Shown: positions 15,936 to 41,491 of the stretch, piece after piece | How positions within the stretch are numbered: the stretch's first letter is position 1 | Layout: each line of letters begins with the position of its first letter | Assembly: GCA_965140415.1 (NCBI GenBank) | Contig: OZ223209.1 | Coordinates: forward strand, 5,024,001-5,088,000 | Reading direction: 5' to 3' | Length of the DNA stretch: 64,000 nucleotides | Origin: Myxococcota bacterium | GTDB lineage: Bacteria > Myxococcota_A > SURF-8 | Translations under genes and position numbers: made by a program | Notes under the pieces: model-generated | What the model saw: only the letters and a program-made list of their open reading frames with translations | What the model was told of the DNA's origin: nothing | Databases searched by the model: none

Positions 15936-17011
15936 TGGATATCCGTATCGAGCCGATGAAACCCGAATTGAAAAAAGATCCGAAGGAAATCCTGGCCGGA
16001 GAACTTGGATTCGGGCAGGTATTCTGCGATCAAATGTTCACCGTGGAATACAATCCGGAACAGGGCTGGCACAATGCCCGTATCCGTCCTTACGAACCAT
16101 TTCAACTCGATCCCGCCGCATTGGTGCTGCACTACGCCCAGGAAATTTTCGAAGGACTCAAAGCCTATCGCCTGCCCGACGGCGGCGTGGGCATGTTCCG
16201 CCCCGAAATGAACGCCGAGCGCATGAACAATTCGGCCCGCCGCCTGGTTATGCCGGAATTACCGGTGGAAGGTCAACTGAAAGCCATGCATTGGCTGGTC
16301 AAGGAATTGAAAGACTGGGTGCCCGATAAGGCCGGGTATTCGCTGTATTTGCGACCCACCATGATCGCCACCACGCCCGTGCTGGGCGTCAGGCCCTCCA
16401 ACGATTACCTGTATTACATCATCTGTTCCCCGGTAGCCGGGTATTTCTCCGGCGGCTTCAAGCCGGTGCGCATCGCCACCAGCCAGCAATACGTTCGTGC
16501 AGCAGTGGGCGGTGTTGGAGCAGCCAAAACCGGCGGCAACTATGCGGCCAGCCTGCTTGCCGCCAAGGCCGCCAAGGAAGAAGGCTTCGATCAGGTGGTC
16601 TGGCTCGACGCCAAGGAACATCGCTACATCGAGGAAATGGGCGGCATGAACATCTTCTTCGTCAGCGGTAAGAAGCTGATGACCTGCCCCTTGACCGGCT
16701 CGATTCTGCCGGGCATCACCCGCAACTCGATTTTAACGCTTGCACCCGAACTGGGCTATGAAGTCGAGGAAACCCTGCTGGATGCAAACGAGGTCTGCGC
16801 CAAAATCGACAGCGGCGAAATCGGCGAGATCTTCGCCTGCGGCACGGCGGCGGTAATTACGGCGGTCGGCGAATTCAGCCATGGCGGAACGAATCACAAG
16901 GTGGGCGACGGCCAACCTGGGGAAATCACGAAACATCTGCACGAAACACTGACCGGTATCCAGAACGGCAAGCTGGAAGACCGTCACAACTGGACCGCGC
17001 GCGTGCTGTAA
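15935..17011 (+). CDS. ilvE: Branched-chain amino acid aminotransferase
   Basis: LHYAQEIFEGLKAY, LYLRP, AKTGGNYAAS, EEMGGMN, ILPGITR and GTAAVI. TGATG overlap with the regulator gene. Confidence 0.95.
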   Translation: MDIRIEPMKPELKKDPKEILAGELGFGQVFCDQMFTVEYNPEQGWHNARIRPYEPFQLDPAALVLHYAQEIFEGLKAYRLPDGGVGMFRPEMNAERMNNSARRLVMPELPVEGQLKAMHWLVKELKDWVPDKAGYSLYLRPTMIATTPVLGVRPSNDYLYYIICSPVAGYFSGGFKPVRIATSQQYVRAAVGGVGAAKTGGNYAASLLAAKAAKEEGFDQVVWLDAKEHRYIEEMGGMNIFFVSGKKLMTCPLTGSILPGITRNSILTLAPELGYEVEETLLDANEVCAKIDSGEIGEIFACGTAAVITAVGEFSHGGTNHKVGDGQPGEITKHLHETLTGIQNGKLEDRHNWTARVL

Positions 17012-17364: not shown

Positions 17365-18342
17365 ATGCGAATTAACCGATTGAAAGTATTCTTTTTTGCA
17401 GGAATCATCGCTCTGCTTTTTTGCGCCTGCAACGAATCGGATACAAACAGCGACGGCGATAGCAAGACCGATGGTGATTTGGACATGGAATTCACAGAGA
17501 ATTTCGATGCAGAGCAGGAACCGGAAGCCGAGTTGGATCTGTACGAGGGCAACTGCGAGGAATATATTGTTCCGAGAAGACTGACGGCCTGTTGGGATAC
17601 AAACGCTTGGCCCGATAATTGGAGCGTATTCAAAGATCCAAGTTATGGTGAAAATGTTTTAGTGTTCAATGGCCAGATCTTAGACATCGGTCAAGAACCG
17701 GAACGCATAGGATTTTGTTCAAGCCAAATCAGTTCCATTTCTGGGATACATGAAGATTACGCCTTTGAACCTGGTTCAAAGTGCTGGATCTCCTTAAAAG
17801 ATCAACTGGATACAGTCTGGTCCCTAGGGCTCCTGGGAGCAGGCTTGAACCCAAACCTGCAAACCGGACAAAACGTGAAAATCCTGATGTGGCAGGAACG
17901 GGATTGGGGATTGGGTTGGCTGGATTTGTACGTTGAAGACGAACTCGTATACCAAATTTTCAACACCAGCACAGCTAGAATTGCTGAAGGTTTGCAACAC
18001 CCGGATGAGCTGGAGTTTACGACGGACACCATCTGCCAGCAAACACGCGGCACGCAGGCAAATGGTCGTAGTGATGCTTACCATGAGTTGTGGGTCAAGC
18101 ACGAACAATGCTGGTATGTTTTACAACCCGGCGAAGTGCGCTATATTCCAAACACGGATTGGGTGGTCGTTTTCGAACAATCCAGCAGCATATCGGTTTG
18201 GGGAGAAGACAATCCGTACAACGAAACACTGTACACCAAAAGCCCCGTAGCCCTGTACAAGGTCGATTCCGACCCGACCGGTACGCCGCTGCTAAACGGC
18301 TTCTCCTGGAGCAACGCCCCCTGCCAGCCGGTGGAAGAGTAA
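17365..18342 (+). CDS. Hypothetical lipoprotein with DGD motifs after the lipobox
   Basis: AGGAG Shine-Dalgarno, lipobox FCAC, then DGDSKTDGDLD; appears lower in GC than its neighbours. Confidence 0.75.
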   Translation: MRINRLKVFFFAGIIALLFCACNESDTNSDGDSKTDGDLDMEFTENFDAEQEPEAELDLYEGNCEEYIVPRRLTACWDTNAWPDNWSVFKDPSYGENVLVFNGQILDIGQEPERIGFCSSQISSISGIHEDYAFEPGSKCWISLKDQLDTVWSLGLLGAGLNPNLQTGQNVKILMWQERDWGLGWLDLYVEDELVYQIFNTSTARIAEGLQHPDELEFTTDTICQQTRGTQANGRSDAYHELWVKHEQCWYVLQPGEVRYIPNTDWVVVFEQSSSISVWGEDNPYNETLYTKSPVALYKVDSDPTGTPLLNGFSWSNAPCQPVEE

Positions 18343-18557: not shown

Positions 18558-20663
18558 TCAGAGCGTGCGCAGCAAGGTCAATCCCTTTTTCGTGCCGCTG
18601 CGGTCGGCGTCGGTCGAGTAACAGATGGTGCCGCAACGCAGGCAACGCGAGGCTTCACGCAACAGGTCTTCGTGAGTGATGGTCTGATCCACTTCGTCGT
18701 AGGAGTAGATGCGCTCGGCGGGATTCAATTCGTCGAAATGCACGCGCTGGCTGCGATCCACACCGTTCAATTCCGCCAGTTTCGATAAAGTCAGCGGCTT
18801 TTTCTGGATGTTGGCGGGAACGCTCATGTCTTCGCCATTCAGGAAACAATGGATGGCGCGCGCCGCTTTGCGGCCTGAACCGATGGCCGTGACCGCCAGC
18901 GCCGGACCGGTGAAACCGTCGCCTGCGGCGAAGATCTTGGGAACGCCGGTCTGGCAGGTATCGTCGTTGCCGTCCAACGTCCCCCAACGGGTGACTTCCA
19001 ACCCGCGCTCTTTCAAGGATTCCGGCACGAAAGAGGGGTCCACTTTCTGTCCGATGGCGGCGATAACCGTATCCAGTTCGATCACGTGCTCGGAACCTTC
19101 TTTGGGCACCGGGCGACGGCGACCGCTGGCGTCGGGTTCTCCCAGTTCCATTTCGATGACTTCCAAGCCGGTCAGCACGTTGTTCTCGTCGGCGACCAAT
19201 TTCGTGGGTGCGTTCAGGAACAGCAGCTTTACACCCTCTTCCTTGGCGGCATGGATTTCGACCGGGTTGGCGGGCATTTCCTTTTCGGTGCGGCGATAAA
19301 TGATACTCACCTCTTCCGCGCCTTCACGTAGCGCCGAACGGGATGCGTCGATGGCGGTATTGCCGCCGCCGATGACCGCAACGCGTTTGCCCATCGTTAC
19401 AGAGATGCCCTGCTCGCGCTTGGCCAGGAAATTGATGCCGCCCCATACGCCTTCGATGCTGTCTTCGCCTTCCAGTCGCATGGTGCTGTTGATCCAGGCA
19501 CCGATCGCCACCAGCACGGCGTCGTATTTCTCCTCCAGGCCATCCAGCGTGATGTCGCGTCCCAGGCGAACGCCGGTTTTGGCGGTCACACCCATGTCCA
19601 AAATTCCCTGGATATCCCAGTCCAGAATCTTTTTCGGCAGGCGATATTCCGGGATGCCGTAGCGCAGCATGCCGCCAAGGTGGTCTTCGCTCTCGAAGAT
19701 GGTCACATCGTGTCCGAGCCGACGCAGGAAGTAGGCGGCTGTCAAGCCTGCCGGACCACCACCTACAACGGCGATGTGCTTGCCGGTATCGGGCAGAACG
19801 GGCAACTTGATGTGCTGATCGTCCAGCCGTTCCCAGTCCGCCACGTAACGCTTAATCACATTATGAAACACCGGATCGTCACCAGCCGCCGAACGGCGGC
19901 AGCCTTCTTCACAGGGAGCGGGGCAGATGCGCCCGCACACGCTGGGCAAGGGGTTGCGATCCTTAATGATGGTCAACGCTCCTTCGAAATCGCCTTCGGC
20001 GGCGGCTTTGACATAGTTGGGAATATCGATCTGTGCCGGGCAGATCTGGCGGCAGGGAGCCAGGCATTCGTCTACGGTATTCAGATGCAACAGCGAGGAA
20101 CTCAGCGTTTCCAGTTGAATGACGCCGTGCGGGCAGACGCGCACGCAGGCTCCGCAGCCTCTACAAGCTTCGGCGTTGAAACGCGGATAACCGTCCGGTC
20201 CCATGCGAATGGCGTCGAATGCGCAGGCTTCCACACAGGAACCGAATCCCAAGCAACCCAGGGTACAGTTGCTGTCGCCGTCGTAAAATTCCGCCACCGC
20301 CTGGCAGGAAAGTGCGCCATCGTAATGGAACAGTTCGCCCGCGCGCTGGTTGCTGGAGCAGTAGCGCTTGGCCAGCGACGGCTCCTTGACTTCGACCTTG
20401 ATGCCCATAATGGCTCCAACCGCCTGGGCAATGTCCGGGCCTCCGGCCACGCAGCCATCGACGGGCGCTTCTCCTTTGACGATGGCTTCGGCCATCGCGC
20501 CGCAACCCGGCATGCCGCAGCCGCCGCAATTGGCTCCCACCAACGCATCGGCCACCTGATCGATACGCGGGTCCTGTTCCACATAAAATACCTTGGAGGC
20601 AAACGCCAGCCCGGCGGCTGCCGCTAGTCCTAATCCCAGCATCAACAAGGTTGCGCTAATCAT
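18558..20663 (-). CDS. rnfB: RnfB fused to a GltD/NfnB-like FAD/NAD(P)H oxidoreductase
   Basis: N-terminal TM helix, GANCGGCGMPGC and two ferredoxin motifs; then APCRQICP, NPLPSVCGRICPAPCE, GGGPAG, GGMLRYGIPEYRLP, GGGNTAID, YRR and EASRCLRC. Confidence 0.9.
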   Translation of the reverse strand: MISATLLMLGLGLAAAAGLAFASKVFYVEQDPRIDQVADALVGANCGGCGMPGCGAMAEAIVKGEAPVDGCVAGGPDIAQAVGAIMGIKVEVKEPSLAKRYCSSNQRAGELFHYDGALSCQAVAEFYDGDSNCTLGCLGFGSCVEACAFDAIRMGPDGYPRFNAEACRGCGACVRVCPHGVIQLETLSSSLLHLNTVDECLAPCRQICPAQIDIPNYVKAAAEGDFEGALTIIKDRNPLPSVCGRICPAPCEEGCRRSAAGDDPVFHNVIKRYVADWERLDDQHIKLPVLPDTGKHIAVVGGGPAGLTAAYFLRRLGHDVTIFESEDHLGGMLRYGIPEYRLPKKILDWDIQGILDMGVTAKTGVRLGRDITLDGLEEKYDAVLVAIGAWINSTMRLEGEDSIEGVWGGINFLAKREQGISVTMGKRVAVIGGGNTAIDASRSALREGAEEVSIIYRRTEKEMPANPVEIHAAKEEGVKLLFLNAPTKLVADENNVLTGLEVIEMELGEPDASGRRRPVPKEGSEHVIELDTVIAAIGQKVDPSFVPESLKERGLEVTRWGTLDGNDDTCQTGVPKIFAAGDGFTGPALAVTAIGSGRKAARAIHCFLNGEDMSVPANIQKKPLTLSKLAELNGVDRSQRVHFDELNPAERIYSYDEVDQTITHEDLLREASRCLRCGTICYSTDADRSGTKKGLTLLRTL

Positions 20664-20733
20664 GCTCGTGCCTCTCGTATAGCCATAATCATCGTAGAAA
20701 ACCTTCCCTGGCGGTCGTGGCAGACCACCTGGA

Positions 20734-21306
20734 TCAGATCATCCCTTTGAACGCGAAAAAGGTCAATGACATCATACCGGCTGTGATCAATCCCAGAGCA
20801 GTGCCTCTCAGCGGTCGGGGAACGGGAGCGAATTCGAATTTCTCCCGGATACCCGCAAACAATACCAATGCCAACCCGAAACCCGCCGCAGCGGAGAAGG
20901 AATACACTAAGCATTGCACGAAGGTATGGTCATTCTTGATGTTCAACAGCGCCGCACCCAGCACCGCGCAGTTGGTGGTAATCAGCGGTAAAAAGATCCC
21001 CAACGCCTGATACAGGGTCGGCAGGGTTTTTCGCAGAAACATTTCAACCAGTTGCACCAGCGCCGCAATCACCAGAATAAACGCCAGCGTACGCAGATAT
21101 TGCAGATCGTAGGGAACGAGCAGGAAATGCTCGACGATCCAGGCGATGGCCGCCGCCAATACCAGAATGAACTGCACCGCAAGCGCCATGCCGATGGCGG
21201 TATCCATCTTCTTGGAAACACCAAGGAATGGGCAGTTTCCAAGGAATTGCGCCAACAAAATGTTGTTGACGAAAATCGCGCTGATGATCATAAGGAAGTA
21301 GTCCAT
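20734..21306 (-). CDS. rnfA: Electron transport complex subunit RnfA
   Basis: [18 protein letters not shown] and [16 protein letters not shown]. Confidence 0.95.
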
Positions 21307-21356
21307 CGAAACCCTCTATCCGATTAGGTTAGCGAATCCGTATTCTTTTCAATTAC

Positions 21357-21959
21357 TTAAGCCTTCGCCACCTTGGGACGTCCCAAAGCGTTCATGATAC
21401 CCAGCATCAGACCCAGGCAGATAAAGGCGCCCGGTGCCTGCTGCATGAAAGTAAATGGTTCGAAGCTGGAACCGAACAGGCTAATTCCCATGAAGGTTCC
21501 CGCTCCCAGTACCTCTCGCAAGGAAGCCAAGGCGATCAAGGACATGGTAAATCCGGTACCGATGCCCAGACCATCGGCAGCAGAGAGCAACACGCCGTTT
21601 TTACTGGCAAAAGCTTCCGCTCGTCCCAAGACAATGCAGTTCACGACAATCAGTGGAATAAAGATTCCAAGACTCTCGGAAAGACTGAAGAAATAGGCTT
21701 TCATCAGGATTTCCACCGCCACCACGAACGTCGCAATGATGACGATATAGGCCGCAATGCGCACCTCTTTGGGAATGATCTTGCGCACGGCGGAAATAAT
21801 CATGTTGGAACAGGCCAGCACGAAAATGACCGCCACACCCATACCGATGGCGTTTTCCACCTTGGTGGTGACAGCCAATGTCGGACAGAGACCGAGCACC
21901 AACCGGAAGGGCGGAAGTTCTTTCCATAAGCCTTTTGTGAATTCTTTGCCGAAACCCAC
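21357..21959 (-). CDS. rnfE: Electron transport complex subunit RnfE
   Basis: LGLCPTLAVT, GIFIPLIVVNCIVLGRAEAFA and APGAF. Confidence 0.95.
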   Translation of the reverse strand: MGFGKEFTKGLWKELPPFRLVLGLCPTLAVTTKVENAIGMGVAVIFVLACSNMIISAVRKIIPKEVRIAAYIVIIATFVVAVEILMKAYFFSLSESLGIFIPLIVVNCIVLGRAEAFASKNGVLLSAADGLGIGTGFTMSLIALASLREVLGAGTFMGISLFGSSFEPFTFMQQAPGAFICLGLMLGIMNALGRPKVAKA

Positions 21960-21992
21960 AGTATGTCTCCTTCTTCGAAGGTTATCAGCCGC

Positions 21993-22574
21993 TTATTGGG
22001 CTGCCTTGAGAATCTCGTCTTTATGTTCTTCAAACAGCTTAATGCCGTCAGCCAGTGCCTGACAGACCGCACGCGAAGTGACCGTTGCACCGGTCACGGC
22101 GTCCACGCCGCCACCATCGGCTTTGACCTTGAAAACGGTTTGCGTGCTCATGCCTTTGAATTGCTTGGTGAAAGTCGCTTCCTTGGCGCGGGTACCGACA
22201 CCGGGCGTTTCACTCATGGTGGTAATGCCGATGCCGGTCAACTTGCCGGTATTCAACTCGAAACCGATCATCACGCCGACCGTGCCGCCAAAGCCTTTTC
22301 CGAACGATTCCAGCGCCACCGCATACGGTTTGCCGTCTTTCTTGGCCGGGAAAAGCAATACGGGATTTTTCTGCCCGACATCCAGTTTCTTGCGGTCGTT
22401 GAGCAGGTCGTTGGAAGCATCTTGCAAAACGGCCTTGACCGCCGGCATCTGCTTGTTTTCCAGCACCTGGATTTCAATGCGCTCCTTGGTGCCGTTGTTC
22501 AGTGCAGCCAGCGAAAAACCGCTGATCAACGAAATGATCGAAAGCGATAAAATGATGTGCAACCACTTAGGCAT
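21993..22574 (-). CDS. rnfG: Electron transport complex subunit RnfG
   Basis: N-terminal TM helix, GFGG, ETPGVG and covalent-FMN motif DAVTGATVTS. Start placed at MPKWL. Confidence 0.93.
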   Translation of the reverse strand: MPKWLHIILSLSIISLISGFSLAALNNGTKERIEIQVLENKQMPAVKAVLQDASNDLLNDRKKLDVGQKNPVLLFPAKKDGKPYAVALESFGKGFGGTVGVMIGFELNTGKLTGIGITTMSETPGVGTRAKEATFTKQFKGMSTQTVFKVKADGGGVDAVTGATVTSRAVCQALADGIKLFEEHKDEILKAAQ

Positions 22575-23415
22575 GGATCTTCTCCATCGGAATCGATTTG
22601 GGGCGAATGCGGTCGAACATGGGAGCCGCCATGTTTCCAAGCAGTACCGCAAAAGGAACCACTTCCATCCAGATGCCATAGACCCGGATCAACACGACCA
22701 GAACTCCGGCCATCAAACCGAACAGAATCTTGGACAGCAGATTGGCAGGACTTGTGGTTTCGTCGGTCACCAGGAAGAATGCGCCCAGCATGACGTTGCC
22801 GGTGAGTAGCTGCTCCACGGCAGTCAGTGTCGTTTCGGGATACACCGCATGGAAAATCAACCCACCAATAAAGACTCCTGCCAGAAACGCGATCGGCACG
22901 ATGCGGTTGACCAGTCCCAATAGCACAAGCAACAATCCCCCGGCAGCCATCGCGTAGGGACAGGCGGTTCCCAATGTGACACCACCCACCGGTTGCAAAT
23001 GCAGTGGCCAGGAGAGCAGCACCATCAGGTAGCCGATCATCGCCGGGTGGAAGGGATAGCAACCCAAGCCGCCGAAAATCTGTTTGGCCACCACCGAAGC
23101 CAGCGCCGCGCCGATGATAATAATCCAGAAAGGCACCGACGGCGGCATCAGCAGGCCGAAAACCAGACCCATCACCACTGCATGGCCATCCAGCGCATAG
23201 ATAGGCTGGCGCATGAAGTGCTGTGCCAATGCCTCGGCGGCCACACTGGAAAATACGGCCAGCGCCAGGATGAGAACGGCGTTTAAGCCATGCAATACCA
23301 CTGCCGCCGCAACTGCGGGCAACAGCGCCAGCGCCATGGCATAGTGGGAAGCGACGGTACTTGCGCCGATCTTTCGATGTGGCGGCGGTCCGACGGTTAA
23401 AATAGGATCAGACAT
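22567..23415 (-). CDS. rnfD: RnfD-like membrane subunit (short; no recognisable FMN-attachment loop)
   Basis: AKQIFGGLGCYPFHPA, GAFFLVTDETTSP, LIRVYG and FAVLLGN; 282 aa. Confidence 0.88.
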   Translation of the reverse strand: MSDPILTVGPPPHRKIGASTVASHYAMALALLPAVAAAVVLHGLNAVLILALAVFSSVAAEALAQHFMRQPIYALDGHAVVMGLVFGLLMPPSVPFWIIIIGAALASVVAKQIFGGLGCYPFHPAMIGYLMVLLSWPLHLQPVGGVTLGTACPYAMAAGGLLLVLLGLVNRIVPIAFLAGVFIGGLIFHAVYPETTLTAVEQLLTGNVMLGAFFLVTDETTSPANLLSKILFGLMAGVLVVLIRVYGIWMEVVPFAVLLGNMAAPMFDRIRPKSIPMEKIHA

Positions 23416-23486
23416 AGTGATTCGCTCCTCGATTTCGATTCACTGCCCATGCACGATGACTCGAACATGGACGTTGTAAGCGAAGG

Positions 23487-24722
23487 TCAATCGTTTAGTT
23501 TTCGCGCGTTTTTGGCCAGCCGGAACCATTGCACCAAAGGACGTGCGCTGGGACAGACGTAGGCGCACAAGCCGCAGTCGATGCAATACTGCAAATCCGG
23601 GGCATCGTCGTATTGGCCATATTCACAAATACGACCCATATTCTGCACCTGTAACTTGGCCGGGCAGACCTCGATACAAGCACCGCAATTGACGCAAGGA
23701 CGTGAAATTACTTCATCTTGAGAAGTAGCAGCCAGCACCGTCACGCCTTCGATTCCCGGCAGCACCGGAGTATCGAGTGAAAACGTCGGCGTTCCGGCCA
23801 TCGGACCACCCAGCAGAACGCGATCGTGAGTGTCGATCTGAGCGCCGCAGGCGTCCAATGCCGCACGTAACGACGCTCCATAAGGAATACGCACGTTCTG
23901 CGACTTGCCATCCCGTGTAACTACCGTTAAATGCTGGAAAGCCGGTGGCGCTCCGGTGGTTGCCAGGATAAAGAGCGCGCGCGCCAATCCGAACGGAATC
24001 ACGCGCAACCCCTTGGAATCGGCTCCCTGTCGCACCAAGTTGCTCTTTAAAACCCTATCGTGCGCTTCGGGGTAACGTAAACCGACCGGCAGCACTTCGA
24101 CATCGGCATTACCCAATGCCTCCTGCACCGCAGATACGGCAGGCTTCGGCACAGCCAGCAGCATGCGCTGCGCGCCGGAAAGATCCCGGCAAAGCTGCAT
24201 GATGGCGGCCAACCCTTCCAGGCTGTCCTGCAACAGTTGGGCGCGCGAGATCAAGCCCAGATCCTGATCGCAGGCATTGACAACCAGAATCTGCACGTCG
24301 CCTTTCAGCGGCAGCAGTTCTTCACGCACCAGACCGGGCAGATAAGCCTGTAAGGCACTTTCCGTTACCCGCTGACGGATCGTCGCCGAATCGGGCAGCA
24401 CCAGCTTTCCCAGTTTCAGTGGCGCGGGAAGCTCTCCCGGCGTCACCTTAAAAGCCTGAGCCGCTCTCAAGCGGGGTGGAAAGGGCGCTTCACCAACGGC
24501 GCTCACCGTACCGTCTAATGGAGCGATCAGCTTGACATCCTCGTCCTGAGCCAAGACCGCTCCCGCCTCAATGGCATCGCCTTCGGCCACGACCGCAGGG
24601 AACAGGCGTCCACGATCATCAACCAGCGGCCACAGCAACTCCTTGGCCGACACGGTTTTAAAAGGCGATTGGTGATTTGCGTAAGAAAGTCTAGGCTTGC
24701 TAAATCCTCGAAACCATTGCAT
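23487..24722 (-). CDS. rnfC: Divergent RnfC-like subunit
   Basis: First gene of the operon; APLDGTV, LGGPMAG, CVNCGACIEVCP and CIDCGLCAYVCPS; NADH/FMN motifs are degenerate. Confidence 0.8.
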   Translation of the reverse strand: MQWFRGFSKPRLSYANHQSPFKTVSAKELLWPLVDDRGRLFPAVVAEGDAIEAGAVLAQDEDVKLIAPLDGTVSAVGEAPFPPRLRAAQAFKVTPGELPAPLKLGKLVLPDSATIRQRVTESALQAYLPGLVREELLPLKGDVQILVVNACDQDLGLISRAQLLQDSLEGLAAIMQLCRDLSGAQRMLLAVPKPAVSAVQEALGNADVEVLPVGLRYPEAHDRVLKSNLVRQGADSKGLRVIPFGLARALFILATTGAPPAFQHLTVVTRDGKSQNVRIPYGASLRAALDACGAQIDTHDRVLLGGPMAGTPTFSLDTPVLPGIEGVTVLAATSQDEVISRPCVNCGACIEVCPAKLQVQNMGRICEYGQYDDAPDLQYCIDCGLCAYVCPSARPLVQWFRLAKNARKLND

Positions 24723-25383
24723 GGATTATCGTCCTAGCGTCTGAAGTTGAAAGGCTCTCGACTGCACTAGCCGCCCCTGCCGGGTGCGGCGCTACAACGA
24801 ATGATCAGTCATCGATCTAGTTTGCTAAACGGTTTGGATCTTTTCGATATTCGACACTCTTTACGGCCTGAATCGCAAGGTGAACCCTTTCGATTCCGCC
24901 CATTTATGAATACGACAGTCTCTGGAAGGCGTCAATAAAAACCTCGACGGCACCCGATGCGGTTTTTGCCTTTCCATTTGGTAAAAAAGCTTTTTCGGTT
25001 AAAAGTGCCGATCGCGGATTTCCACAGCAGCAGGCTTTCTTTCGGATATTGCAAGTGTCCGAACCTGTTGAAATCATACAGTCTGGGCGATTTCCCGGCT
25101 ACCATTCGATTTTCATTCTCCAGCCTTTGGAGATGAAAGTCTTTAATATTTCAGGCATAATCAATCTTACATATTCCACACACGAATAGATCATATAAGT
25201 AAATACAATAACTCACTAAAGGCTTTTTCTTGAGCTTGCCCGGCAACCGTGCAATCATAACTCGCAATGTGTCGGTGTGTTTTTCTGGAGAGGAAAACAC
25301 GTCGCATTCGTAATCTGCCGGGAAATCCCGGAATCAAAACGGTAGTCTCCCCACAACTTGTCAATTGGAACGGAGTGCATGCG

Positions 25384-27129
25384 TTGAAACCGATCAAAGC
25401 CGTTCATCTCGTTTGGATTCTTGGAGTTTGGGCCGTTACGATCGCCTTGGGCGGATGGGTGCTGGGCGAACAGGACAGCGGTGACCAACTTGCCAACCGT
25501 TTCGGTCCAGTCCCCTGGAACCATGAACTTCACGCACGCCAGGCGGTGCGGAATTGTCAGATCTGCCACCACAAGTCCAAAGCAGGCACCAGTGATCCGC
25601 AAGCCTGCTCCGAATGCCATACAAAACCCGACGTTTCCGATTCCATCTTCGCCGTGGCTCCATTAAGAGGAGAAGTCAAGGTTGTACCAGGTGAAAAGAA
25701 ACCCAAGCCGCGCCGGGTCGCTTTTCACAAAAGTTGCCAGGGCTGCCACAAAGCCGTCGGCAAAGGACCGACTTCCTGTCGTGACTGCCACCAGTCCATT
25801 ATGGTTTCCGAAGGCGGCGGTACTAAAATGGAACACATAACCTATGCCGTCGATCACGATCTGGCCTGCACACGCTGTCACGAAGAAAACCGCCCCACGC
25901 TGATTCCCGGCGATGCCTGGGAAGATTGTGCATCCTGCCACGACGGCGCAGGTCATCTGCATCAGGTGTGGCCTGACGATGCAAAATACGATCACAGCGC
26001 CTTGTTTAAAGGAAAAGCCAGCGAGGTAGTCTGGGATCACCGCGCCCATAAATCCTATGAACTCGACGCGGATGGTGAACAGGTGAACTGCCTGAGCTGT
26101 CACCATCAAGAGCAGGATACAGACCCGCAAGAATACCGCAAATGCGGCGACTGCCACAAGGAACGCGACGGAGCCATGCAATTCGACGGCAAAGCGGCGC
26201 CTTCGCGTGCAGATGCTCTACATAAGGTCTGCTTGCGCTGCCACAACGCGCAGAAAGAACAGCCGGAAGAAATACCCGGCAACTGCCATGATTGTCACCG
26301 CACCAGCGCCAGCAATCGTCCCACAGATTTCGGAATCGCCACCTGGTCGCATAACGGTCATGCACAAGGGCTTGGAGACGATTGCACCGTCTGCCACCAT
26401 ACCGATGAGCCAGACAGCGAGACGATGACCGCTTGCCGTTCTTGCCATTTCGAAGCGGAGGCCTCGGATTTCGCTGCGCTGAAGCACAGCACCAATACCA
26501 CTTGTATCACCTGCCACGAGCAGGAATCGGTGGAAGGAATCCCTGCTGCTCAATGGAAAAACATCCAGATTTGCGATGCCTGTCATCAGCCTGTCGGAGC
26601 CGACCGGGAACAAAGCAGAGCCACTTTTGTAAAGAAACATTCCCCGCTGCAACTGAAGAACGTGATTCACGAGCAGTGCTGGGCCTGCCACAAACAGGAA
26701 GGCAAAGGACCGCAGGCCGGAGAATGCCGAGTCTGCCACGCACTGCCGCGCAGCCGTCAGATGGTGCTGCAATACGGCGACGATTCCCAGCCGCTTAAAG
26801 AGAAGCTGAATCATCTGGCACCCGACACCTACAACACGCATCGCTTGCACGTCGATGCAGGCGGCTTCCCCTGTGCGGATTGCCACCACAACATGAAACC
26901 GAGCGAGGAAGTCACGCAAAAACTGGCGAAGCTGGTCATTCCGGAAGGTAAAAACTGCAACAGCTTGCAGGCCAAAGCGGATGACTGTCTGCCGGGCAAG
27001 ACAGCCCCGCAGCACTGCGCCAACTGCCACGACAATCCCGAGCTTTCCCTGCCACAGGCGGTGACGGTGCGCAAAACGTTGTGCAACGACTGCCACACGG
27101 AGTTCGGTCTGGAAGCCCCCGTGAAATAA
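25384..27129 (+). CDS. Periplasmic multiheme cytochrome c (class III / c3-like repeats) with 19 CxxCH motifs
   Basis: 19 CxxCH counted; c3-type W(N/D/S)HxxH...CxxCHH modules; N-terminal hydrophobic segment. TTG start after GGAG (the ORF is open from 25267). Confidence 0.92.
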   Translation: MKPIKAVHLVWILGVWAVTIALGGWVLGEQDSGDQLANRFGPVPWNHELHARQAVRNCQICHHKSKAGTSDPQACSECHTKPDVSDSIFAVAPLRGEVKVVPGEKKPKPRRVAFHKSCQGCHKAVGKGPTSCRDCHQSIMVSEGGGTKMEHITYAVDHDLACTRCHEENRPTLIPGDAWEDCASCHDGAGHLHQVWPDDAKYDHSALFKGKASEVVWDHRAHKSYELDADGEQVNCLSCHHQEQDTDPQEYRKCGDCHKERDGAMQFDGKAAPSRADALHKVCLRCHNAQKEQPEEIPGNCHDCHRTSASNRPTDFGIATWSHNGHAQGLGDDCTVCHHTDEPDSETMTACRSCHFEAEASDFAALKHSTNTTCITCHEQESVEGIPAAQWKNIQICDACHQPVGADREQSRATFVKKHSPLQLKNVIHEQCWACHKQEGKGPQAGECRVCHALPRSRQMVLQYGDDSQPLKEKLNHLAPDTYNTHRLHVDAGGFPCADCHHNMKPSEEVTQKLAKLVIPEGKNCNSLQAKADDCLPGKTAPQHCANCHDNPELSLPQAVTVRKTLCNDCHTEFGLEAPVK

Positions 27130-27380: not shown

Positions 27381-28976
27381 TTATTGCCACATCAGCGCCA
27401 TGGTGCCCATGACTTTGTATACGCCATCGGGTTTGTCGCCGTTGGGATCGGCCAGCGCCATACCAGGAATGAAATAGGCTTGCTCGATGCCAAAACGCAG
27501 ACCCACATGTTCCTTCTGCGGCCAGATGTCCAAGCGTACCGCGCCTAAGACTTCCGTTCCGATATAGCGGCTGTCGGTGGGACGACGCAAGTGGTTGACC
27601 GGCGTCCCTCCTTTTTCGAAGGAGTAATAGGCGTGAGAGAAATAAGACGGCGTGGTGATGACCAGCGCACCCGCCAGGAAAGTCAGATGTTCTTTCAAGC
27701 CCAGGTTGAGATGGGGGCTGTAGCGCAATTGCGGCAGATAATAAATGGTGTTGGTAACACGTCCCTGCGTCGCGACCAGATCGATGCCCTTGGGCGCTTT
27801 GGCGGTGCGGTTGGGATTGTCCAGCACTTCAACGCTGCGCGCGGTAATCAGCGGCAGCATTTCATCGAAGAAGATCATACCCACATTGAAATCGGGGTCG
27901 AAGAAAAAGGCGTGGCTGGTATCGTCGTAGGGATCGTTGTCGCCGGAAGCGTAACCGACTTCGAATTCGATGTTGAAACCGACCTCGACGAACTCCAGTT
28001 TGGCCTGTGCGACGGCTCCGTAGGAGAAGAGATCCAGACCGTCCGGAGTGGATTCCTGCACCCAGCGGGTGGTGTTTCCTATAATCAAGGCAGCTTCGTA
28101 GTTCAATTCAAAGGCCATCTCCAACTCGTTGGGCGCGAAGGTGAAGCGGTTCTGCCCGTTGATATTGAAAACGTAGGTTTTCAGCTTGTCGCCGTCGTCG
28201 TCTTCCTGCCAGCGGTACGTAAAGGAAAAACCGTTACTGAATTCAGGCATGCGATAGTATAGGCCCACCGTGGCCATCGCAGCGATGTCGCCGTCGCGCA
28301 GTTTGGCGTTTTCATCCTGGTATACCAGATCTCCGGCCAGCACCAGGGTCAGGTATTCACCCCAGGCACCTTCGCCGGTTAGCGGTAAAAACGGAGTGGT
28401 GGCAAAGAGCACGCGGTCCACGATGTCACCGCGACTGGTAGTGCCGAAGCGCTCGTGGTTGTCTTCGCCGCTATTACCCAGTACTCCCAAGCCATAACCG
28501 CTGGTCATCTGACCAACTTTCAGCAGGCCGATGGGAGAATACCATTGGATGTAGGCGTTGCGCGGCAGGATTTCTTCGATATGTGTGCCTTCGTTTTCTT
28601 CGCGACGGTCGTAGCGCCAGTAGCCTTCCGCGAAATTCTCGTGATCGCCATACAACTGGCCGTGCAGAATATCCAGATCGACCTTGAAATACAGATCTTT
28701 CCAGTTCAACGACGGCGACCAGCGGATGCGATGCTCACCCCAACTGTGGATGGGATTCTGGGTCTGCGGCGTTTCTGCGTCCAGCGCGAAGTCGCTGAGA
28801 TAGAAGAACTCGCGGCGATACTCACCGGCGACCGGATTCCAATGTACTTCGCCGTCGGTGGAACGCGGTTTCACTTCGGCGGTATAGCCCGCTTGCGCAG
28901 CTTGCAGCGGAAGCAGCCAGAGAATGGCAAGACACATCAGCAGGGTACGATTCACATGTTTCATGGTACATCCCAT
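27381..28976 (-). CDS. Outer-membrane beta-barrel protein (alginate-export/porin-like)
   Basis: Signal peptide; GLLKVGQMTSGYGLGVLGNSG; GYASGD; FFFDPDFNVGMIFF; aromatic residue near the C-terminus. Confidence 0.7.
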   Translation of the reverse strand: MGCTMKHVNRTLLMCLAILWLLPLQAAQAGYTAEVKPRSTDGEVHWNPVAGEYRREFFYLSDFALDAETPQTQNPIHSWGEHRIRWSPSLNWKDLYFKVDLDILHGQLYGDHENFAEGYWRYDRREENEGTHIEEILPRNAYIQWYSPIGLLKVGQMTSGYGLGVLGNSGEDNHERFGTTSRGDIVDRVLFATTPFLPLTGEGAWGEYLTLVLAGDLVYQDENAKLRDGDIAAMATVGLYYRMPEFSNGFSFTYRWQEDDDGDKLKTYVFNINGQNRFTFAPNELEMAFELNYEAALIIGNTTRWVQESTPDGLDLFSYGAVAQAKLEFVEVGFNIEFEVGYASGDNDPYDDTSHAFFFDPDFNVGMIFFDEMLPLITARSVEVLDNPNRTAKAPKGIDLVATQGRVTNTIYYLPQLRYSPHLNLGLKEHLTFLAGALVITTPSYFSHAYYSFEKGGTPVNHLRRPTDSRYIGTEVLGAVRLDIWPQKEHVGLRFGIEQAYFIPGMALADPNGDKPDGVYKVMGTMALMWQ

Positions 28977-29212: not shown

Positions 29213-29983
29213 TCAATCGAAGGAGGATGGTGCACTGTTGACATGATAGCCGGTAAAGGCAATCGTCAAGCCGTACAATCGCCAATTGTCGCGGTCGGTG
29301 GTGTGCCAGATCTGACTGAAGGTCAATCCAATTGCAAGACCGCCACGCTTGTTCAAGCCGAATTCATAACCGATGCCGCCGTCTAGTGACCAGCGATTGA
29401 CATAGGAAGAATCCCAACCCGCTCCGGCACGCAAATACAGTCCTTTGACGGGAAAAAACGTGCTCATCAAATGCAGAATCTGCGAGCCTCCGGCGTTGCC
29501 CTGCTCCAGACTGTCGATCAGCACATCCAGCGAGTAATCCACACCCAATAAAGCCCAGGGGCGGATGCACCAGCCGATACGAAAGTTGGCGCGAAACAGA
29601 ATAGAAGGTTTGTCGCCGCCGGATTCCTGTAGAATAACGCCGGGGTCCAACCCTGCGTACAATTCCTTTCGGGCGGGAAAGTCGGTGTTCTTGCGTTCGG
29701 TGGGCTGCAAAACGCCATCGTCGGAATACGCATTGTAGCCCGATTGCTCGTCGTCTGAAGAATCGGTAGAAGGCGAAAGCTCTTCTTGCTGTTCTACAAT
29801 TTCACCTGGATCATTCGCCTTTTCAGGGGCAATCTGTTGCCCCTGCGAGCGCACGATGGATTCCGGGGTTACCTCTTGCGCCAATGCCGACAAAGAAAAC
29901 ATGGAGATTGTCAGCATTAGCAGACAGACACAAAGAACGCTTTTTGCCGGATGCAAAAAACTGAATGAAGAAATGTGATACAT
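29213..29983 (-). CDS. Small outer-membrane beta-barrel protein with an acidic N-terminal linker
   Basis: Signal peptide (ALA/Q) and amphipathic strands (GLYLRAGAGW, GGIGYEF). Confidence 0.6.
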   Translation of the reverse strand: MYHISSFSFLHPAKSVLCVCLLMLTISMFSLSALAQEVTPESIVRSQGQQIAPEKANDPGEIVEQQEELSPSTDSSDDEQSGYNAYSDDGVLQPTERKNTDFPARKELYAGLDPGVILQESGGDKPSILFRANFRIGWCIRPWALLGVDYSLDVLIDSLEQGNAGGSQILHLMSTFFPVKGLYLRAGAGWDSSYVNRWSLDGGIGYEFGLNKRGGLAIGLTFSQIWHTTDRDNWRLYGLTIAFTGYHVNSAPSSFD

Positions 29984-37911: not shown

Positions 37912-38511
37912 TCAGCGCCAGATCTGCGGCGACTCCAACTCATCGTTGGTCAGCGACGTCAAGACATGGTCCTGCCACTCTCCATTAATGTATAGATACT
38001 TGCGAGCCGTGCCTTCTGCAATAAATCCTAGTTTTTTCAGAAGGTTACCGGAACGAGTATTGTGAGGAACGTGGTTGGCCATAATACGATGCAGTTTCAT
38101 GGTATCAAACACATAACGGATTGCGGGCTGGATAGCCTCGTACATCAGCTGCTGCCCTTGATAATCTTTATCTAGGTTGTAACCCATATAGCAAGACTGA
38201 AACGCCCCACGTACAATTTCCGTAAAGGTCAACGTTCCGATGATCGGTCGCTCGGGATCGTCCTTGGGGTACAGTCCCAACCAGATGAAATGATTCCGTT
38301 TAAACTCTCCAAGGGCTGCGGCAAGGAATTCCCGCCAGAAAGTTTCCGTATAGAAATCCGCCGCTCTCGGCGGCGACCACGGCGCTAAATGCTCCTTGTT
38401 GCGCTGGAAGAAATCCAGCATCCGCCCGGCATGTTGCGGTTCGGGAATCGTGACAATCAGTCGTTCGGTACGAAAAACAGGTCGCTCGATTGTGGAATAG
38501 GGGTAGCTCAT
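37912..38511 (-). CDS. rimJ: RimJ-like GNAT N-acetyltransferase
   Basis: HLAPWSP, IVRGAFQSCYMGY, LHRIMAN and YLYINGEWQDHVLTSL. Confidence 0.85.
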   Translation of the reverse strand: MSYPYSTIERPVFRTERLIVTIPEPQHAGRMLDFFQRNKEHLAPWSPPRAADFYTETFWREFLAAALGEFKRNHFIWLGLYPKDDPERPIIGTLTFTEIVRGAFQSCYMGYNLDKDYQGQQLMYEAIQPAIRYVFDTMKLHRIMANHVPHNTRSGNLLKKLGFIAEGTARKYLYINGEWQDHVLTSLTNDELESPQIWR

Positions 38512-39327
38512 CCGATTCCCTTGGCTAATCGGCTGGAAGTGAATGTTCCTCTTACTACCATTTTGCCTGCGCCGTAAGCAGACTGTTCTATTCCTATACG
38601 TTTTACTAGCGTGCTCTTTTTGTCAAGAGAATATAGCGGGAATCCACAGAACGAGACCCACTCAGGCATTTTGGCATCCTGGCATCATCTCTTTTCATTC
38701 TCACGATTTCCAATTGAAATGCCCTCGATCACTCGTTTTTGAGGTGAAAATGACCATGTGTTGCGGCAATTGCAACGCTTTTTTTAACTAGTAAGTCGCT
38801 CTCAAACTTTTGTTGTCCACTATTTCAGGACAAACATATCACATTGTATTTACAGCCTTTTTCTAGTACTCTGATTGTCATTCCACGTCATATTTCGATA
38901 AATTCAATCCAGATTACCCCAGAGTATACAAGTGTTGCAAAACATGTGTTGCGCAGCCATCCAGAATGCGTTGCGTCATAATGCTGGTAATTTTCACTAT
39001 GATATCATTGCCTTATAAACACTTCATACCTTACATTGTCGCAAGAGCGCATTATTTGCGCTTTTTTGGTCATTTTTCTGGGTGATTTTCTGAGTGAGGC
39101 TTCATCCATTTTCTTGGAATAGCCACTTTTATTTCTATAATTTGTGAAATCAAAACAACATCACCGCCTGTTGCTGTGCAACAGGTGCGCAGGTTTTACG
39201 TTTTACGTTTTGTCAAGAGTTTCAGTCACATGCCAGGATATTACCGATGCCAGCCAGCGTCCATTTATAACATTTTGGAATACCTGCCTGCTGTAGACGA
39301 GAATGGGGTGATTCTCATTGTGAAAAG

Positions 39328-39344
39328 TTGGCATGCAGATTGCT
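39328..39344 (+). promoter_or_regulatory. Putative sigma54 (-24/-12) promoter
   Basis: TTGGCATGCAGATTGCT has GG-N10-GC spacing. Upstream inverted repeat CCTGTTGC-TGT-GCAACAGG (39167-39185) and further TGTTGC motifs. Confidence 0.7.
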
Positions 39345-39354
39345 TATTCTTCTA

Positions 39355-39960
39355 CTCGTTGTTTGTCGAAGGATCTCTGACAACGTAACCCATCCGCCAG
39401 TAGTAGTTGGCGGCTAGTGGAGATTTCGGGAAGCCGGAGTGGGAGTTGCTCAGGTTGATGCTCTGGTTGGTACTCAGGTTGTAGTTGGTTGTAATGTAGT
39501 TGCTCATTTTGATGTCATGTTCCCGTTTGCCTGGTCCGGCTTCCCTTTAAATTTCCTCTCGACTCAACATAGGAGTAACGGCAACATGAAAGCAGTCTTC
39601 GAATTATTCTCAACGATTTTCAAAGAGAACATGAAATTCTGGTTCTCTTCGATCTTCGAAGAAAAGCGCGGTTAAAAGGCCTATCGGCATTTTCGGCTTT
39701 CTCTATGGATCTCCGAACTGAACTTCTAGCTTTCTTTCCTGGAAGAGTAATTTCTTCTGTACATCACATCCCAAGTGATACGCGTCAATTCTCAATCTAT
39801 CCCTCTGCTATAGAGAAAGCCGTAGATTTTTCTACGCAAGTGTAAAACCCCTTTAACACTTACATATAAATCGTGCGTTAAGGCACGATACACCCGATTC
39901 CCAATCGGGGTCGCCTTGGTTTTTCAAAAACCGGCGGCCTCGTCCTTTTCGCATTTTCTC
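39355..39960 (+). ncRNA. Candidate large structured RNA of unknown family, containing an sORF
   Basis: Two long-range perfect stems (11 bp and 13 bp) and at least 7 local hairpins directly downstream of the sigma54 motif. Confidence 0.5.
39586..39675 (+). CDS. 29-aa small protein MKAVFELFSTIFKENMKFWFSSIFEEKRG
   Basis: AGGAG Shine-Dalgarno at 39571-39575; internally repeated amphipathic sequence. Confidence 0.55.
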   Translation: MKAVFELFSTIFKENMKFWFSSIFEEKRG

Positions 39961-40270
39961 TGTAATAACAATATATTAACTATATCTATGAGAAGCATGT
40001 GGGGTCTTGTCTGTTATTAAAGACCGCAAGATAGGTGCAAGCAATCTATAACTACTCTTCTGCCAGCCCCTCTTTTTTCAGACAAAATGTAAACCGCAAC
40101 TGTCAGAAAACAAATCCGAAAAAAGTGAAAATCTTCTAGTAGGAAAGAAAGCTTTTCAAGCCAACCTAAAATCTGTTACACTTCCCCCGCCAATTTACGT
40201 TGAGTGCCAATCGAATTCGACTTGCAGTTTAGGTGCGAAATTCACGCAATGCCTGCCAGTCGCATGAACC

Positions 40271-41491
40271 ATGGAATGGATAAATGGAGATTTACCGATG
40301 ATCCTACGGTTTGCTCACATGCTCTGCCTGTCTATACTGGTGTTATTATTAATGAATACATGGAGTTGGGCGCAGGAGAACTCGGAAGTCCTTCCGGCGC
40401 AAGCAGAAGAAACAGCAAAAGCCGCTGCCGATGCTCCCGAGACCGATGCTGCCACAACGACTGATTCCGGGACTGAAAATGCGGCTGCAACGGCTGATAC
40501 GCAAGAAAGCACCACGACCGAAACTACTGCGGCGGCGGAAGTGGAAGCCAGTCCGCAAAAGACCGAATCCAACACGGAAACGACCACAAACGCGCCGGTA
40601 AATACACCCGTTGATACACAAGAAGCACAGGACGTTTCCGAGGCTGGGACAAAGGCGACCGGTAAACAACCGCTAAAAGCACGTAACGACACGCAAACGA
40701 CCAGTGAACAAGCTCCGGTTGCCGGTCAGAATATGACCGAACCAGCCACAGAAACGACCGAAACCGCACCGGAAGCGGCGGAAACCACCAACACGGAAGC
40801 TACTCCCGTTGCTCCCGCAGCAGCCGAAGAAAGCTCTCCTTCCGAAACGACACCACCACCGGCAACCGCAGAAGCCACTAAAACGGAAGCAGCACCCGTA
40901 GCAGAAGAAGACGAGGATGAAGAGGACGAAGACGGTGAAGAAGAGGAAAAAGTTCCCGGCAGCCAGATTCGTTTTTCAATCGTCGGCGGTGGCCTGGTTC
41001 CCGTTAAAGGCGGCAAGGCGGGTTTCGCGGTCGGAGGTCATTTGGGATATGAATTCGGCGGCGACTTGAAGAATCTGAGTATTGAATTGTTTTTATACCA
41101 GGGTTGGAACGATAGCAACGAACTACTGGAAAAACCGGGCGAAAATCTGGATAAAACCCGCAAAGGGTTGAAGTTGCTGGCTTTCGCTCCGGGTGTACGC
41201 TATCGCGTGTATGGCGAGCGCTTCCGCGTGTATCTCTCCGGGCATATCGGTTTATCATACGCTACCTATACGCTGCCGGGGGATTCCGGTACTTCCAAAG
41301 AAGGCTTGGCGGCGGATCTGGGCGGCGGCATCGAGTATCAGCTTTCCGACATGTTCCACATCGATATCACTGCCGCCTACGCTTTCCATGCACTGAACAT
41401 TCCGATCATCGAAGGCAGTGCCAATAACAAAGGCAGCTACCTGCACGGTCTGTTCGTCGGCGCGGGAATCGGGTTGAAAACAGATCTGTAA
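40271..41491 (+). CDS. Outer-membrane beta-barrel (OmpA-like membrane domain) with a long Ala/Thr/Glu-rich N-terminal tract
   Basis: Signal peptide (SWA/Q), about 190-aa low-complexity region, then amphipathic strands (GGHLGYEF, PGVRYRV, DLGGGIEY). Confidence 0.7.
   Translation: MEWINGDLPMILRFAHMLCLSILVLLLMNTWSWAQENSEVLPAQAEETAKAAADAPETDAATTTDSGTENAAATADTQESTTTETTAAAEVEASPQKTESNTETTTNAPVNTPVDTQEAQDVSEAGTKATGKQPLKARNDTQTTSEQAPVAGQNMTEPATETTETAPEAAETTNTEATPVAPAAAEESSPSETTPPPATAEATKTEAAPVAEEDEDEEDEDGEEEEKVPGSQIRFSIVGGGLVPVKGGKAGFAVGGHLGYEFGGDLKNLSIELFLYQGWNDSNELLEKPGENLDKTRKGLKLLAFAPGVRYRVYGERFRVYLSGHIGLSYATYTLPGDSGTSKEGLAADLGGGIEYQLSDMFHIDITAAYAFHALNIPIIEGSANNKGSYLHGLFVGAGIGLKTDL

Follow-up and report, generated by a model that had tools for sequence, protein, structure and literature searches.

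A Myxococcota operon of the Rnf2 type with an NfnB/GltD-type module fused to RnfB and without the canonical flavin motifs of RnfC and RnfD

The closest described relatives of the operon reported here are the Rnf complexes of the Rnf2, or "Desulfobacula toluolica Tol2-type", branch (Woehlbrand et al., 2013, as cited by Doerries et al., 2016, PMC5109826; see also Sci Adv 2025, PMC11887813). In the Rnf2 passages of PMC5109826, the RnfB of this type is ~700 amino acids (aa) long and has NAD+-binding sites, its RnfC is held to need a partner other than NAD(H), and the rnf2 cluster contains a small cytochrome. Desulfococcus multivorans and Desulfobacterium autotrophicum both possess Rnf1 and Rnf2, and proteomics of D. 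multivorans detected six Rnf1 and five Rnf2 subunits under all substrate conditions, with RnfA2 detected under only six of them (PMC5109826). According to the Rnf2 passages of PMC11887813, the complex belongs to the core genome of the Desulfobacteraceae and is constitutive and abundant in six strains. Members of this family oxidize a large share of the organic carbon in marine sediments. We have analyzed a 64,000-nucleotide stretch of a Myxococcota bacterium (GenBank assembly GCA_965140415.1, contig OZ223209.1, positions 5,024,001 to 5,088,000; hereafter the window), and conclude that the rnf operon it contains is one more member of this already described branch. Particular to the subclade of the window are a complete deletion of the flavin loop of RnfD and a 19-haem cytochrome c. 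Coordinates of window features are positions in the window, unless a genome contig is named.

Excerpts of a 2025 review on RNF and the Na+-translocating NADH:quinone oxidoreductase (NQR) (PMC12174285) give the canonical electron path as RnfB, the [2Fe-2S] cluster of RnfA/E, the flavin mononucleotide (FMN) of RnfG, the FMN of RnfD, riboflavin, the RnfC clusters, and finally FMN and NAD+, and call the membrane-core cofactors of both systems strictly conserved. The words "Desulfo", "sulfate", "cytochrome c", and "fused" do not occur in the review, and beyond PMC5109826 and PMC11887813 our literature searches yielded no further functional work on the RnfB fusion. The window's operon shares with the canonical complexes of A. 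woodii (9ERI), C. tetanomorphum (7ZC6), and A. vinelandii (8AHX) six homologous subunits encoded in CDGEAB order, the cysteines of RnfA/E, the flavinylation motif of RnfG, the N-terminal iron–sulfur (FeS) domains of RnfB, and the two [4Fe-4S] motifs of RnfC. It differs from them in having an NfnB-type module for flavin adenine dinucleotide (FAD) and NAD(P)H on RnfB and an associated cytochrome c, and in lacking the flavin motifs of RnfC and RnfD, for which we write RnfC′ and RnfD′. Pfam and NCBIfam profiles named all six subunits; on the minus strand, rnfC comes first, followed by rnfD, rnfG, rnfE, rnfA, and rnfB-gltD (Table 1).

The first 190 aa of RnfB comprise a transmembrane helix, the FeS domain (PF04060), and a 2x[4Fe-4S] ferredoxin domain. 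There follow a Fer4_20 domain with seven cysteines, all within residues 200–255, FAD and NAD(P)H Rossmann domains with GGGPAG at 301–306, GGGNTAID at 432–439, and YRR at 456–458, and a C-terminal tail with CxxCxxxC. The fused module is complete, as the initial annotation had described it (PF14691, 83 bits; PF07992, 125.5 bits; NF009410, 520.4 bits with the cut-off at 516). Its five best solved matches, namely Nfn-ABC 9bov_A (E 1.2e-134), NfnABC 9n5u_A, StnABC 8oh5_C, NfnB 4ylf_B, and 5jca_L, are all NADPH/FAD subunits of electron-bifurcating enzymes. Positions 4–487 of the 506-residue module align with the NfnB-like part of 9bov_A, and the cluster cysteines, GGGPAG, and GGGNTAxD...YRRT..EMPA are shared between the module and its relatives in the displayed alignments. 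The module thus fits an NADPH-type site, as far as likeness of motifs can indicate specificity. Those enzymes (9BOV, 9N5U, 8OH5, 4YLF, and 5JCA) are soluble, whereas the window's module is tethered to a membrane-anchored RnfB that works alongside a NuoF-like RnfC′ without an FMN/NAD site. In the tail, the three cysteines of CxxCxxxCY (aa 674–682, encoded at 18618–18644) are invariant in 56 fused RnfB proteins; in the alignments with Nfn-ABC and StnA, the motif falls where their next Fe-S domain begins. Fused RnfB is widespread, with more than 120 clusters of ~700 aa among the matches listed, from sources that include Desulfovibrio inopinatus, Desulfovibrio sp. X2, Pseudodesulfovibrio, Spirochaetota, and Acidobacteriota. 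The caution in the initial annotation that such fusions may already be known was apt, given their description in PMC5109826.

In RnfC′, we found SALQAYLPG at aa 122–130, NACDQDL at 149–155, YPEA at 217–220, GGPM at 305–308, and two CxxCxxCxxxCP motifs at 343–354 and 380–391. When aligned with the solved chains 9eri_C, 7zc6_C, and 8ahx_C and with the canonical RnfC of the same genome, SALQ----AYLPG, in which four residues are deleted, lies opposite G(L/M)GGA(T)FP, NACDQDL opposite NGAECEP, and YPEAHD opposite YPQGAE, with GGPM and both cysteine motifs retained. The three motifs that mark the FMN/NADH site of canonical Rnf (GxGGAxFP, NGxECEP, and YPQG) are therefore all missing. RnfC′ reaches 148.9 bits on TIGR01945, under the cut-off of 245.95, and 22.5 bits on PF01512 (Complex1_51K), under the cut-off of 31.2; PF10531 (SLBB) does not appear in its Pfam match list. 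An AlphaFold2 model built on 48 aligned sequences (predicted local distance difference test score [pLDDT] 89.8; predicted TM-score [pTM] 0.90) was compared with solved structures by Foldseek. The model superposed over its full length on solved RnfC chains, with a query TM-score (TMq) of 0.79–0.81; NqrA came next, at 0.62–0.69 for full-length chains, and NuoF-like chains stood at ranks 17–34. As modeled, RnfC′ retains its fold while its flavin and nucleotide motifs are lost. We considered, and rejected, the idea that RnfC′ is an isolated protein. A word-index search gave 44 proteins with a best non-self identity of 31%, yet a genome search gave orthologues at 39–42%, and the weak result reflects the limits of the word index rather than any isolation of RnfC′.

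The change to RnfD′ is a deletion. The HMMER alignments to it leave unpaired residues 162–185 of 9eri_D, 140–212 of 8ahx_D, and 222–270 of the NqrB chain 9ud3_B, in keeping with the initial annotation, which had noted a protein of 282 aa without the loop that carries the FMN threonine. Residues 135–151 read SWPLHLQPVGGVTLGTA. A remnant VGGVTLGTACP, followed by a gap, stands opposite VDGMTTATPLG of the canonical paralogue. The residue that faces the FMN threonine differs by aligner (C152 with HMMER, T150 with MAFFT), and the nine short-RnfD operons described below conserve neither of the two throughout. The covalent-FMN motif of canonical RnfD, Dxx[ST]xA[TS]P, is missing. On TIGR01946, RnfD′ scores 188.9 bits in two separate stretches, under the cut-off of 207.05, and its 210.9 bits on PF03116 are likewise split over two stretches, whereas the match to the 285-position model NF041838 is contiguous. 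The short form was also found in 8 close clusters of 282–285 aa and in three of 291 aa by word-index search. The Rnf2 passages of PMC5109826 and PMC11887813, the latter without its supplementary text and fig. S18, make no mention of RnfD, and hence none of the loss of its flavin site. Taken with the RnfC alignment, these comparisons with solved RnfC, RnfD, and NqrB chains showed that the FMN and NADH motifs are not intact, and the motifs that the initial annotation had quoted for RnfC, RnfD, RnfG, and RnfB were each found where it had placed them.

RnfA, RnfE, and RnfG all passed their Rnf cut-offs. The RnfG open reading frame (ORF) has TGAT at 196–199, within DAVTGAT, and scores 223.5 bits (cut-off 205) on NF045876 (RnfG_DVU2794, Desulfovibrio DVU2794) in an alignment that begins at residue 36; PF04205 also matches. 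RnfA scores 272 bits on TIGR01943 (cut-off 229.3). As in canonical Rnf, the flavinylation motif of RnfG and the cysteine pairs of RnfA and RnfE for the membrane [2Fe-2S] cluster are present. The route through RnfA/E and RnfG is intact, and no other part of the complex is as well conserved.

Like other Rnf2 clusters, the window's operon has a cytochrome c gene in the cluster, 544 bp upstream of rnfC′ by ORF coordinates; its start is uncertain and lies at 25267 or at a GTG at 25375. The region between the two divergent genes is presumably a promoter region that they share. Cytochromes of the window's clade have 19 CXXCH motifs in 618–639 aa, whereas the Rnf2-linked cytochromes of the Desulfobacterales type have 3–8 in 119–222 aa. 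Genes of the latter type are co-oriented with rnfC′ at a distance of 13–461 bp and mostly upstream, the exception being a second copy in locus L098, whereas the window's gene is divergent. A homologue with 42–45% identity to the window's cytochrome adjoins the operon in three relatives (L030, L031, and L033), while L039, L040, and L044 have 11–16-haem forms downstream of rnfB. The operon also shares with Rnf2 the ~700-aa RnfB with NAD(P)-binding domains, an RnfC without the NADH-ubiquinone-oxidoreductase and SLBB domains, and coexistence with an A. woodii-type Rnf1. The second difference from other Rnf2 members lies in RnfD, which in the window's subclade is 282–291 aa long with the loop deleted, whereas in the others it has ~320 aa and a Tyr where the threonine would be.

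We then asked how regularly these features occur together. In a phylum sample, the N-terminal domain of RnfB was matched in 92 of 401 genomes, in 19 of them within a frame of at least 650 aa. Two loci, L050 and L051, were set aside and rejected as Rnf2, as they are long RnfB-like frames with no Rnf neighbors and with likeness only over the first ~220 residues; this left 17 genomes in which a fused rnfB belongs to an rnf operon. RnfC was readable in 16 of these operons (that of genome G003 lies on a second contig, and the contig of G263 ends too early), and L052 and L054 (longest-ORF calls of 835 and 747 aa) and L055 and L057 (contigs too short) were left out of the RnfC set. All three FMN/NADH motifs of RnfC are missing in 16/16 fused operons and kept in 7/7 unfused ones, and the Dxx[ST]xATP motif of RnfD is missing in 16/16 fused operons and kept in 6/6 canonical ones. 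Nine operons have the RnfD loop deleted (the window, L030–L034, L036, L039, and L040); in L043–L049 the loop is present but has no FMN motif. In the same sample, [DE]xx[ST]GAT is kept in 16/16 RnfG, and the cysteine pairs, by regular expression, in 17/17 RnfA and 16/17 RnfE.

A wider set came from a scan with the RnfC alignment, taking one genome per species and the best 80 of 566 confirmed loci (599 stretches). Since the scan used a single Fe-S pattern and only the best loci were taken, relatives of the query are overrepresented among these 80, which do not form a random sample. After 6 loci with an RnfC ORF of <380 aa had been dropped, 43 that retained no more than one of the three RnfC motifs were classed as degenerate, and 31 that retained two or more as canonical. 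Where the gene at the operon end was complete, RnfB was fused in 22/22 degenerate loci and in 0/25 canonical ones. The column of the RnfD FMN threonine held T in 2 of 42 degenerate loci (L087 and L088), against 28 of 29 canonical ones, and the other degenerate loci mostly had Y (28). A homologue of the cytochrome was adjacent in 30/43 degenerate and 0/31 canonical loci. The rnfB of locus L067 is partial, a piece of 150 aa where the contig stops. Loci L097 and L098 were considered as unfused exceptions and rejected, since their small RnfB-like ORF sits upstream and the operon end lies beyond the end of the contig; the ORF in question is an extra 266-aa RnfB-like gene (L097, 1973–2773; L098, 7122–7922) upstream of the cytochrome and rnfC′ genes.

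Because related genomes are not independent, these counts describe one clade and are not a statistical test. Within that limit, loss of the RnfC motifs and the fusion occur together wherever both genes are visible. The survey supports the suggestion of the initial annotation that pyridine-nucleotide chemistry may have moved to the RnfB side (fusion with RnfC motif loss in 16/16 and 22/22, against 0/7 and 0/25), and agrees with its claim of an altered RnfC/RnfD branch. Its further proposal, that electrons could leave through RnfG to a periplasmic carrier, gains support from the retained RnfG motif and the adjacent cytochromes.

A tree of concatenated RnfA and RnfE (82 rows, 397 columns; IQ-TREE quick search, LG+G4) was evaluated by Shimodaira–Hasegawa-like approximate likelihood-ratio test (SH-aLRT) support only. 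The 45 variant operons, together with L081, whose degenerate RnfC ORF of 379 aa had kept it out of the wider-set counts, are set apart by a single branch with a support of 100. The six-member clade of the window also has a support of 100, and groups with L039, L040, and L041 at 94 to form the short-RnfD group of 9 rows; L036, listed above among the operons with a deleted loop, is the second contig of G003, the genome of L041. Loci L043–L049 lie beside loci titled Desulfocarbo and Desulfarculus. The window's operon is in the same clade as loci titled Desulfobacula, Desulfonema, and Desulfosarcina, which places it in common descent with the Rnf2 of the Desulfobacteraceae.

The variant operon recurs in five further genomes of the same family or order (L030–L034), with identities to the window's proteins of 37–41% for RnfC, 53–66% for RnfD, 55–70% for RnfG, 81–88% for RnfE, 76–88% for RnfA, and 72–79% for the RnfB fusion. 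RnfC′ is thus the fastest-evolving subunit, and its reading frame is still open in the relatives. Between the congeneric L031 and L033, the ratio of nonsynonymous to synonymous substitution rates (dN/dS) is 0.075 for rnfC, 0.10 for rnfD, 0.054 for rnfG, 0.049 for rnfE, 0.003 for rnfA, 0.025 for rnfB, and 0.09 for the cytochrome, at a dS of 0.6–1.3. This pair alone was used because synonymous sites between the window and L030 are saturated (dS 1.2–3.0, and undefined for the cytochrome), and the values from that comparison were set aside. Both rnfC′ and rnfD′ are under purifying selection. In L034 (G008:C1, 7973–10068), rnfB is in two frames, with residues 1–75 in an 87-aa ORF and the remainder in a 650-aa ORF; either a frameshift or an error of sequencing close to residue 75 accounts for the split.

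The genome that contains the window also has a canonical apbE-rnfCDGEAB operon (C1:3465572–3472092), whose RnfC and RnfD score 528.9 and 348.1 bits. A PF03116 search of the genome found the RnfD loci of this operon and of the window only, and did not detect NqrB. A second gene for ApbE, the flavin transferase, lies apart from both rnf operons (G000:C1:4503201–4504031), the first being the one that adjoins the canonical operon; no ApbE gene was found within the 64-kb window.

Two other systems offer parallels. In Na+-NQR of Vibrio cholerae, as described in excerpts of PMC12174285, the entry point for pyridine nucleotide is likewise a flavoprotein, NqrF, which stands on the "RnfB side", and NqrA, homologous to RnfC, no longer has a site for nucleotide and flavin; the fold of RnfC′ is NqrA-like. 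However, the input module of NqrF is unrelated to the GltD/NfnB type, NqrA is cofactor-less whereas RnfC′ keeps both [4Fe-4S] motifs, NqrB keeps its covalent FMN, and the acceptor of NQR is ubiquinone. The nqrB models score only 65–76 bits on RnfD′, against cut-offs of 350–792. The Rnf of Methanosarcina acetivorans has, like the window's operon, a co-encoded multihaem cytochrome c (MmcA), whose proposed donor is the covalent FMN of RnfG, an RnfC with clusters but no use of NAD (both from excerpts of PMC4023990), and a short RnfD. It differs in that its RnfB has no NAD(P)H module and its electrons come from ferredoxin, and the archaeal equivalogs for RnfC (NF041837, 87.1 bits against 650), RnfD (NF041838, 149.5 against 400), and RnfG (NF041840, 76.6 against 230) stay far under their cut-offs on the window's proteins.

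We infer from sequence that the complex is most likely an ion-coupled NAD(P)H:cytochrome c oxidoreductase, in which electrons could flow in either direction, and give this reading a probability of roughly 0.5. The FAD of the NfnB/GltD-type module would be the site at which NAD(P)H is oxidized or NAD(P)+ is reduced, and electrons would pass through the two [4Fe-4S] clusters of the module and those of RnfB to the intramembrane [2Fe-2S] cluster of RnfA/RnfE, where the transmembrane step would be the one that is coupled to ion translocation in canonical Rnf and NQR. From there they would move to the covalent FMN that RnfG carries in the periplasm and on to the co-encoded multihaem cytochrome c, bypassing any RnfD FMN, whilst RnfD′ and RnfC′ would be kept as a scaffold without flavins, much like NqrA in NQR. 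The canonical path would be broken in the variant because the RnfD FMN site is missing, and an exit to cytochrome c is favored because the elements up to RnfG are intact, the two later flavin sites are missing, and a cytochrome gene is attached. Precedent for such an exit comes from the M. acetivorans Rnf, which is NAD-independent and in which RnfG is the proposed donor to cytochrome c (excerpts of PMC4023990).

Several observations weigh against this proposal. All eight cluster cysteines of RnfC′ are invariant across the 48 aligned sequences, and purifying selection acts on both rnfC′ and rnfD′, which a purely structural role would explain poorly; the conserved RnfC′ clusters suggest a further role in electron transfer. 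RnfD′ may hold a non-covalently bound flavin, and the variant RnfD of L087 and L088 retains T in the threonine column. An adjacent homologous cytochrome was not seen in 13 of the 43 variant loci, many of which are cut by contig ends. The choice of NADPH over NADH is drawn from motif likeness, PMC5109826 states in its Rnf2 passages that the mode of action "awaits experimental verification", and in those of PMC11887813 Rnf2 is regarded as a sodium pump that connects the pools of NADH, ferredoxin, and NADP.

The invariant cysteines of RnfC′ and the purifying selection keep two other readings alive. According to the first, which we regard as possible but doubtful, Rnf2 would still act as a ferredoxin:NAD(P)+ oxidoreductase in which electrons cross the membrane twice, as in canonical Rnf, an assumption made in the literature on the Desulfobacteraceae. 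NAD(P)H would bind at the RnfB side and ferredoxin, or another low-potential carrier, at the RnfC′ clusters, and either a non-covalent flavin in RnfD′ or a haem of the cytochrome would replace the RnfD FMN. Such an enzyme would explain why six subunits are kept in canonical order, why RnfC′ has a full RnfC fold (TMq ~0.8) with selected clusters, and why RnfC should need a partner other than NAD(H) (PMC5109826), and it would suit the linking of NADH, ferredoxin, and NADP pools (PMC11887813). It has to contend with the loss of the RnfD FMN motif in 40 of 42 variant loci, and of the whole loop in the window's subclade, given that this FMN is the only link between RnfG and riboflavin stated for canonical structures in the excerpts of PMC12174285. 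Moreover, nothing in our sequence analysis points to a ferredoxin site on RnfC′.

The second reading, which we consider unlikely, is that Rnf2 is a membrane-bound bifurcating or confurcating enzyme, in which the FAD of RnfB would split the electrons of NADPH between the membrane route (RnfA/E, RnfG, and cytochrome c) and a cytoplasmic low-potential route through the RnfC′ clusters to ferredoxin. The bifurcating character of all five best solved matches speaks for it, as do the invariant extra CxxCxxxC at the end of the fusion and the fact that the corresponding subunit of NfnABC and StnABC has a NuoF-like partner, RnfC′ being itself NuoF-like. However, glutamate synthase and dihydropyrimidine dehydrogenase, which are non-bifurcating enzymes with GltD-family modules, are among the lower-ranked matches of the fused module, and we found no evidence that the module contacts RnfC′. 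Slightly less probable still is an elaborated form, in which Rnf2 would be a membrane-integrated bifurcating pump with an ion-translocating route to the cytochrome and an RnfC′ route to ferredoxin, and with a haem of the 19-haem cytochrome docked at the site of the deleted RnfD flavin loop. If true, it would overturn the strict conservation of the four core Rnf/NQR cofactors.

The reading of the operon as a redundant second copy of rnf in decay, to which the complete canonical operon with apbE in the same genome and the fast evolution of RnfC′ (37–41% identity, against 72–88% for RnfB, RnfA, and RnfE) might lend some color, is most improbable, and its strain-specific form was rejected outright, in view of intact rnfC′ and rnfD′ frames in the five family or order genomes and in 11 more of the phylum sample, dN/dS values of 0.075 and 0.10, a single clade, a confident AlphaFold2 model, and the detection of Rnf2 subunits by proteomics in D. 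multivorans (PMC5109826) and their constitutive abundance in six strains (PMC11887813).

The survey shows that the covalent FMN of RnfD is without its attachment site across a whole clade, contrary to the statement of strict conservation in the excerpts of PMC12174285. Because this site is missing clade-wide, and the loop itself is gone in the window's subclade, the Rnf2 family offers a natural experiment that can reveal the cofactors essential to the pump.

Table 1. Features of the rnf operon and its associated cytochrome gene in the window
Feature	Position	Strand	Description
rnfC′	23487..24722	−	411 aa; RnfC fold, two [4Fe-4S] motifs, FMN/NADH motifs missing
rnfD′	22567..23415	−	282 aa; membrane subunit without the periplasmic loop and the covalent-FMN threonine motif
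rnfG	21993..22574	−	likely start M36 of ORF 22679..21993; N-terminal membrane helix; flavinylation motif DAVTGAT
rnfE	21357..21959	−	Cys25 in GLCP, Cys108 in VNC
rnfA	20734..21306	−	Cys25 in GNCP, Cys113 in TNC
rnfB-gltD	18558..20663	−	701 aa; RnfB fused to an NfnB/GltD-type module
rnfC′/cytochrome intergenic region	24723..25266		between the two divergent genes
multihaem cytochrome c	25267..27129	+	620 aa; 19 CXXCH; N-terminal hydrophobic anchor; divergent from rnfC′

No Rfam family matched at gathering score across positions 17000–41000 of the window. Three flanking ORFs have no Pfam match at E cut-offs of 0.01 and 1e-5, namely 17365–18342 (+, 325 aa), 27381–28976 (−, 531 aa), and 29213–29983 (−, 256 aa); by eye, the N-terminus is lipoprotein-like in the first of them and signal-peptide-like in the second. 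Farther along, positions 38511–40271 form a region of ~1.7 kb without an ORF of at least 120 aa, which coincides with the lowest-GC bin of the window (0.443, against ~0.54).

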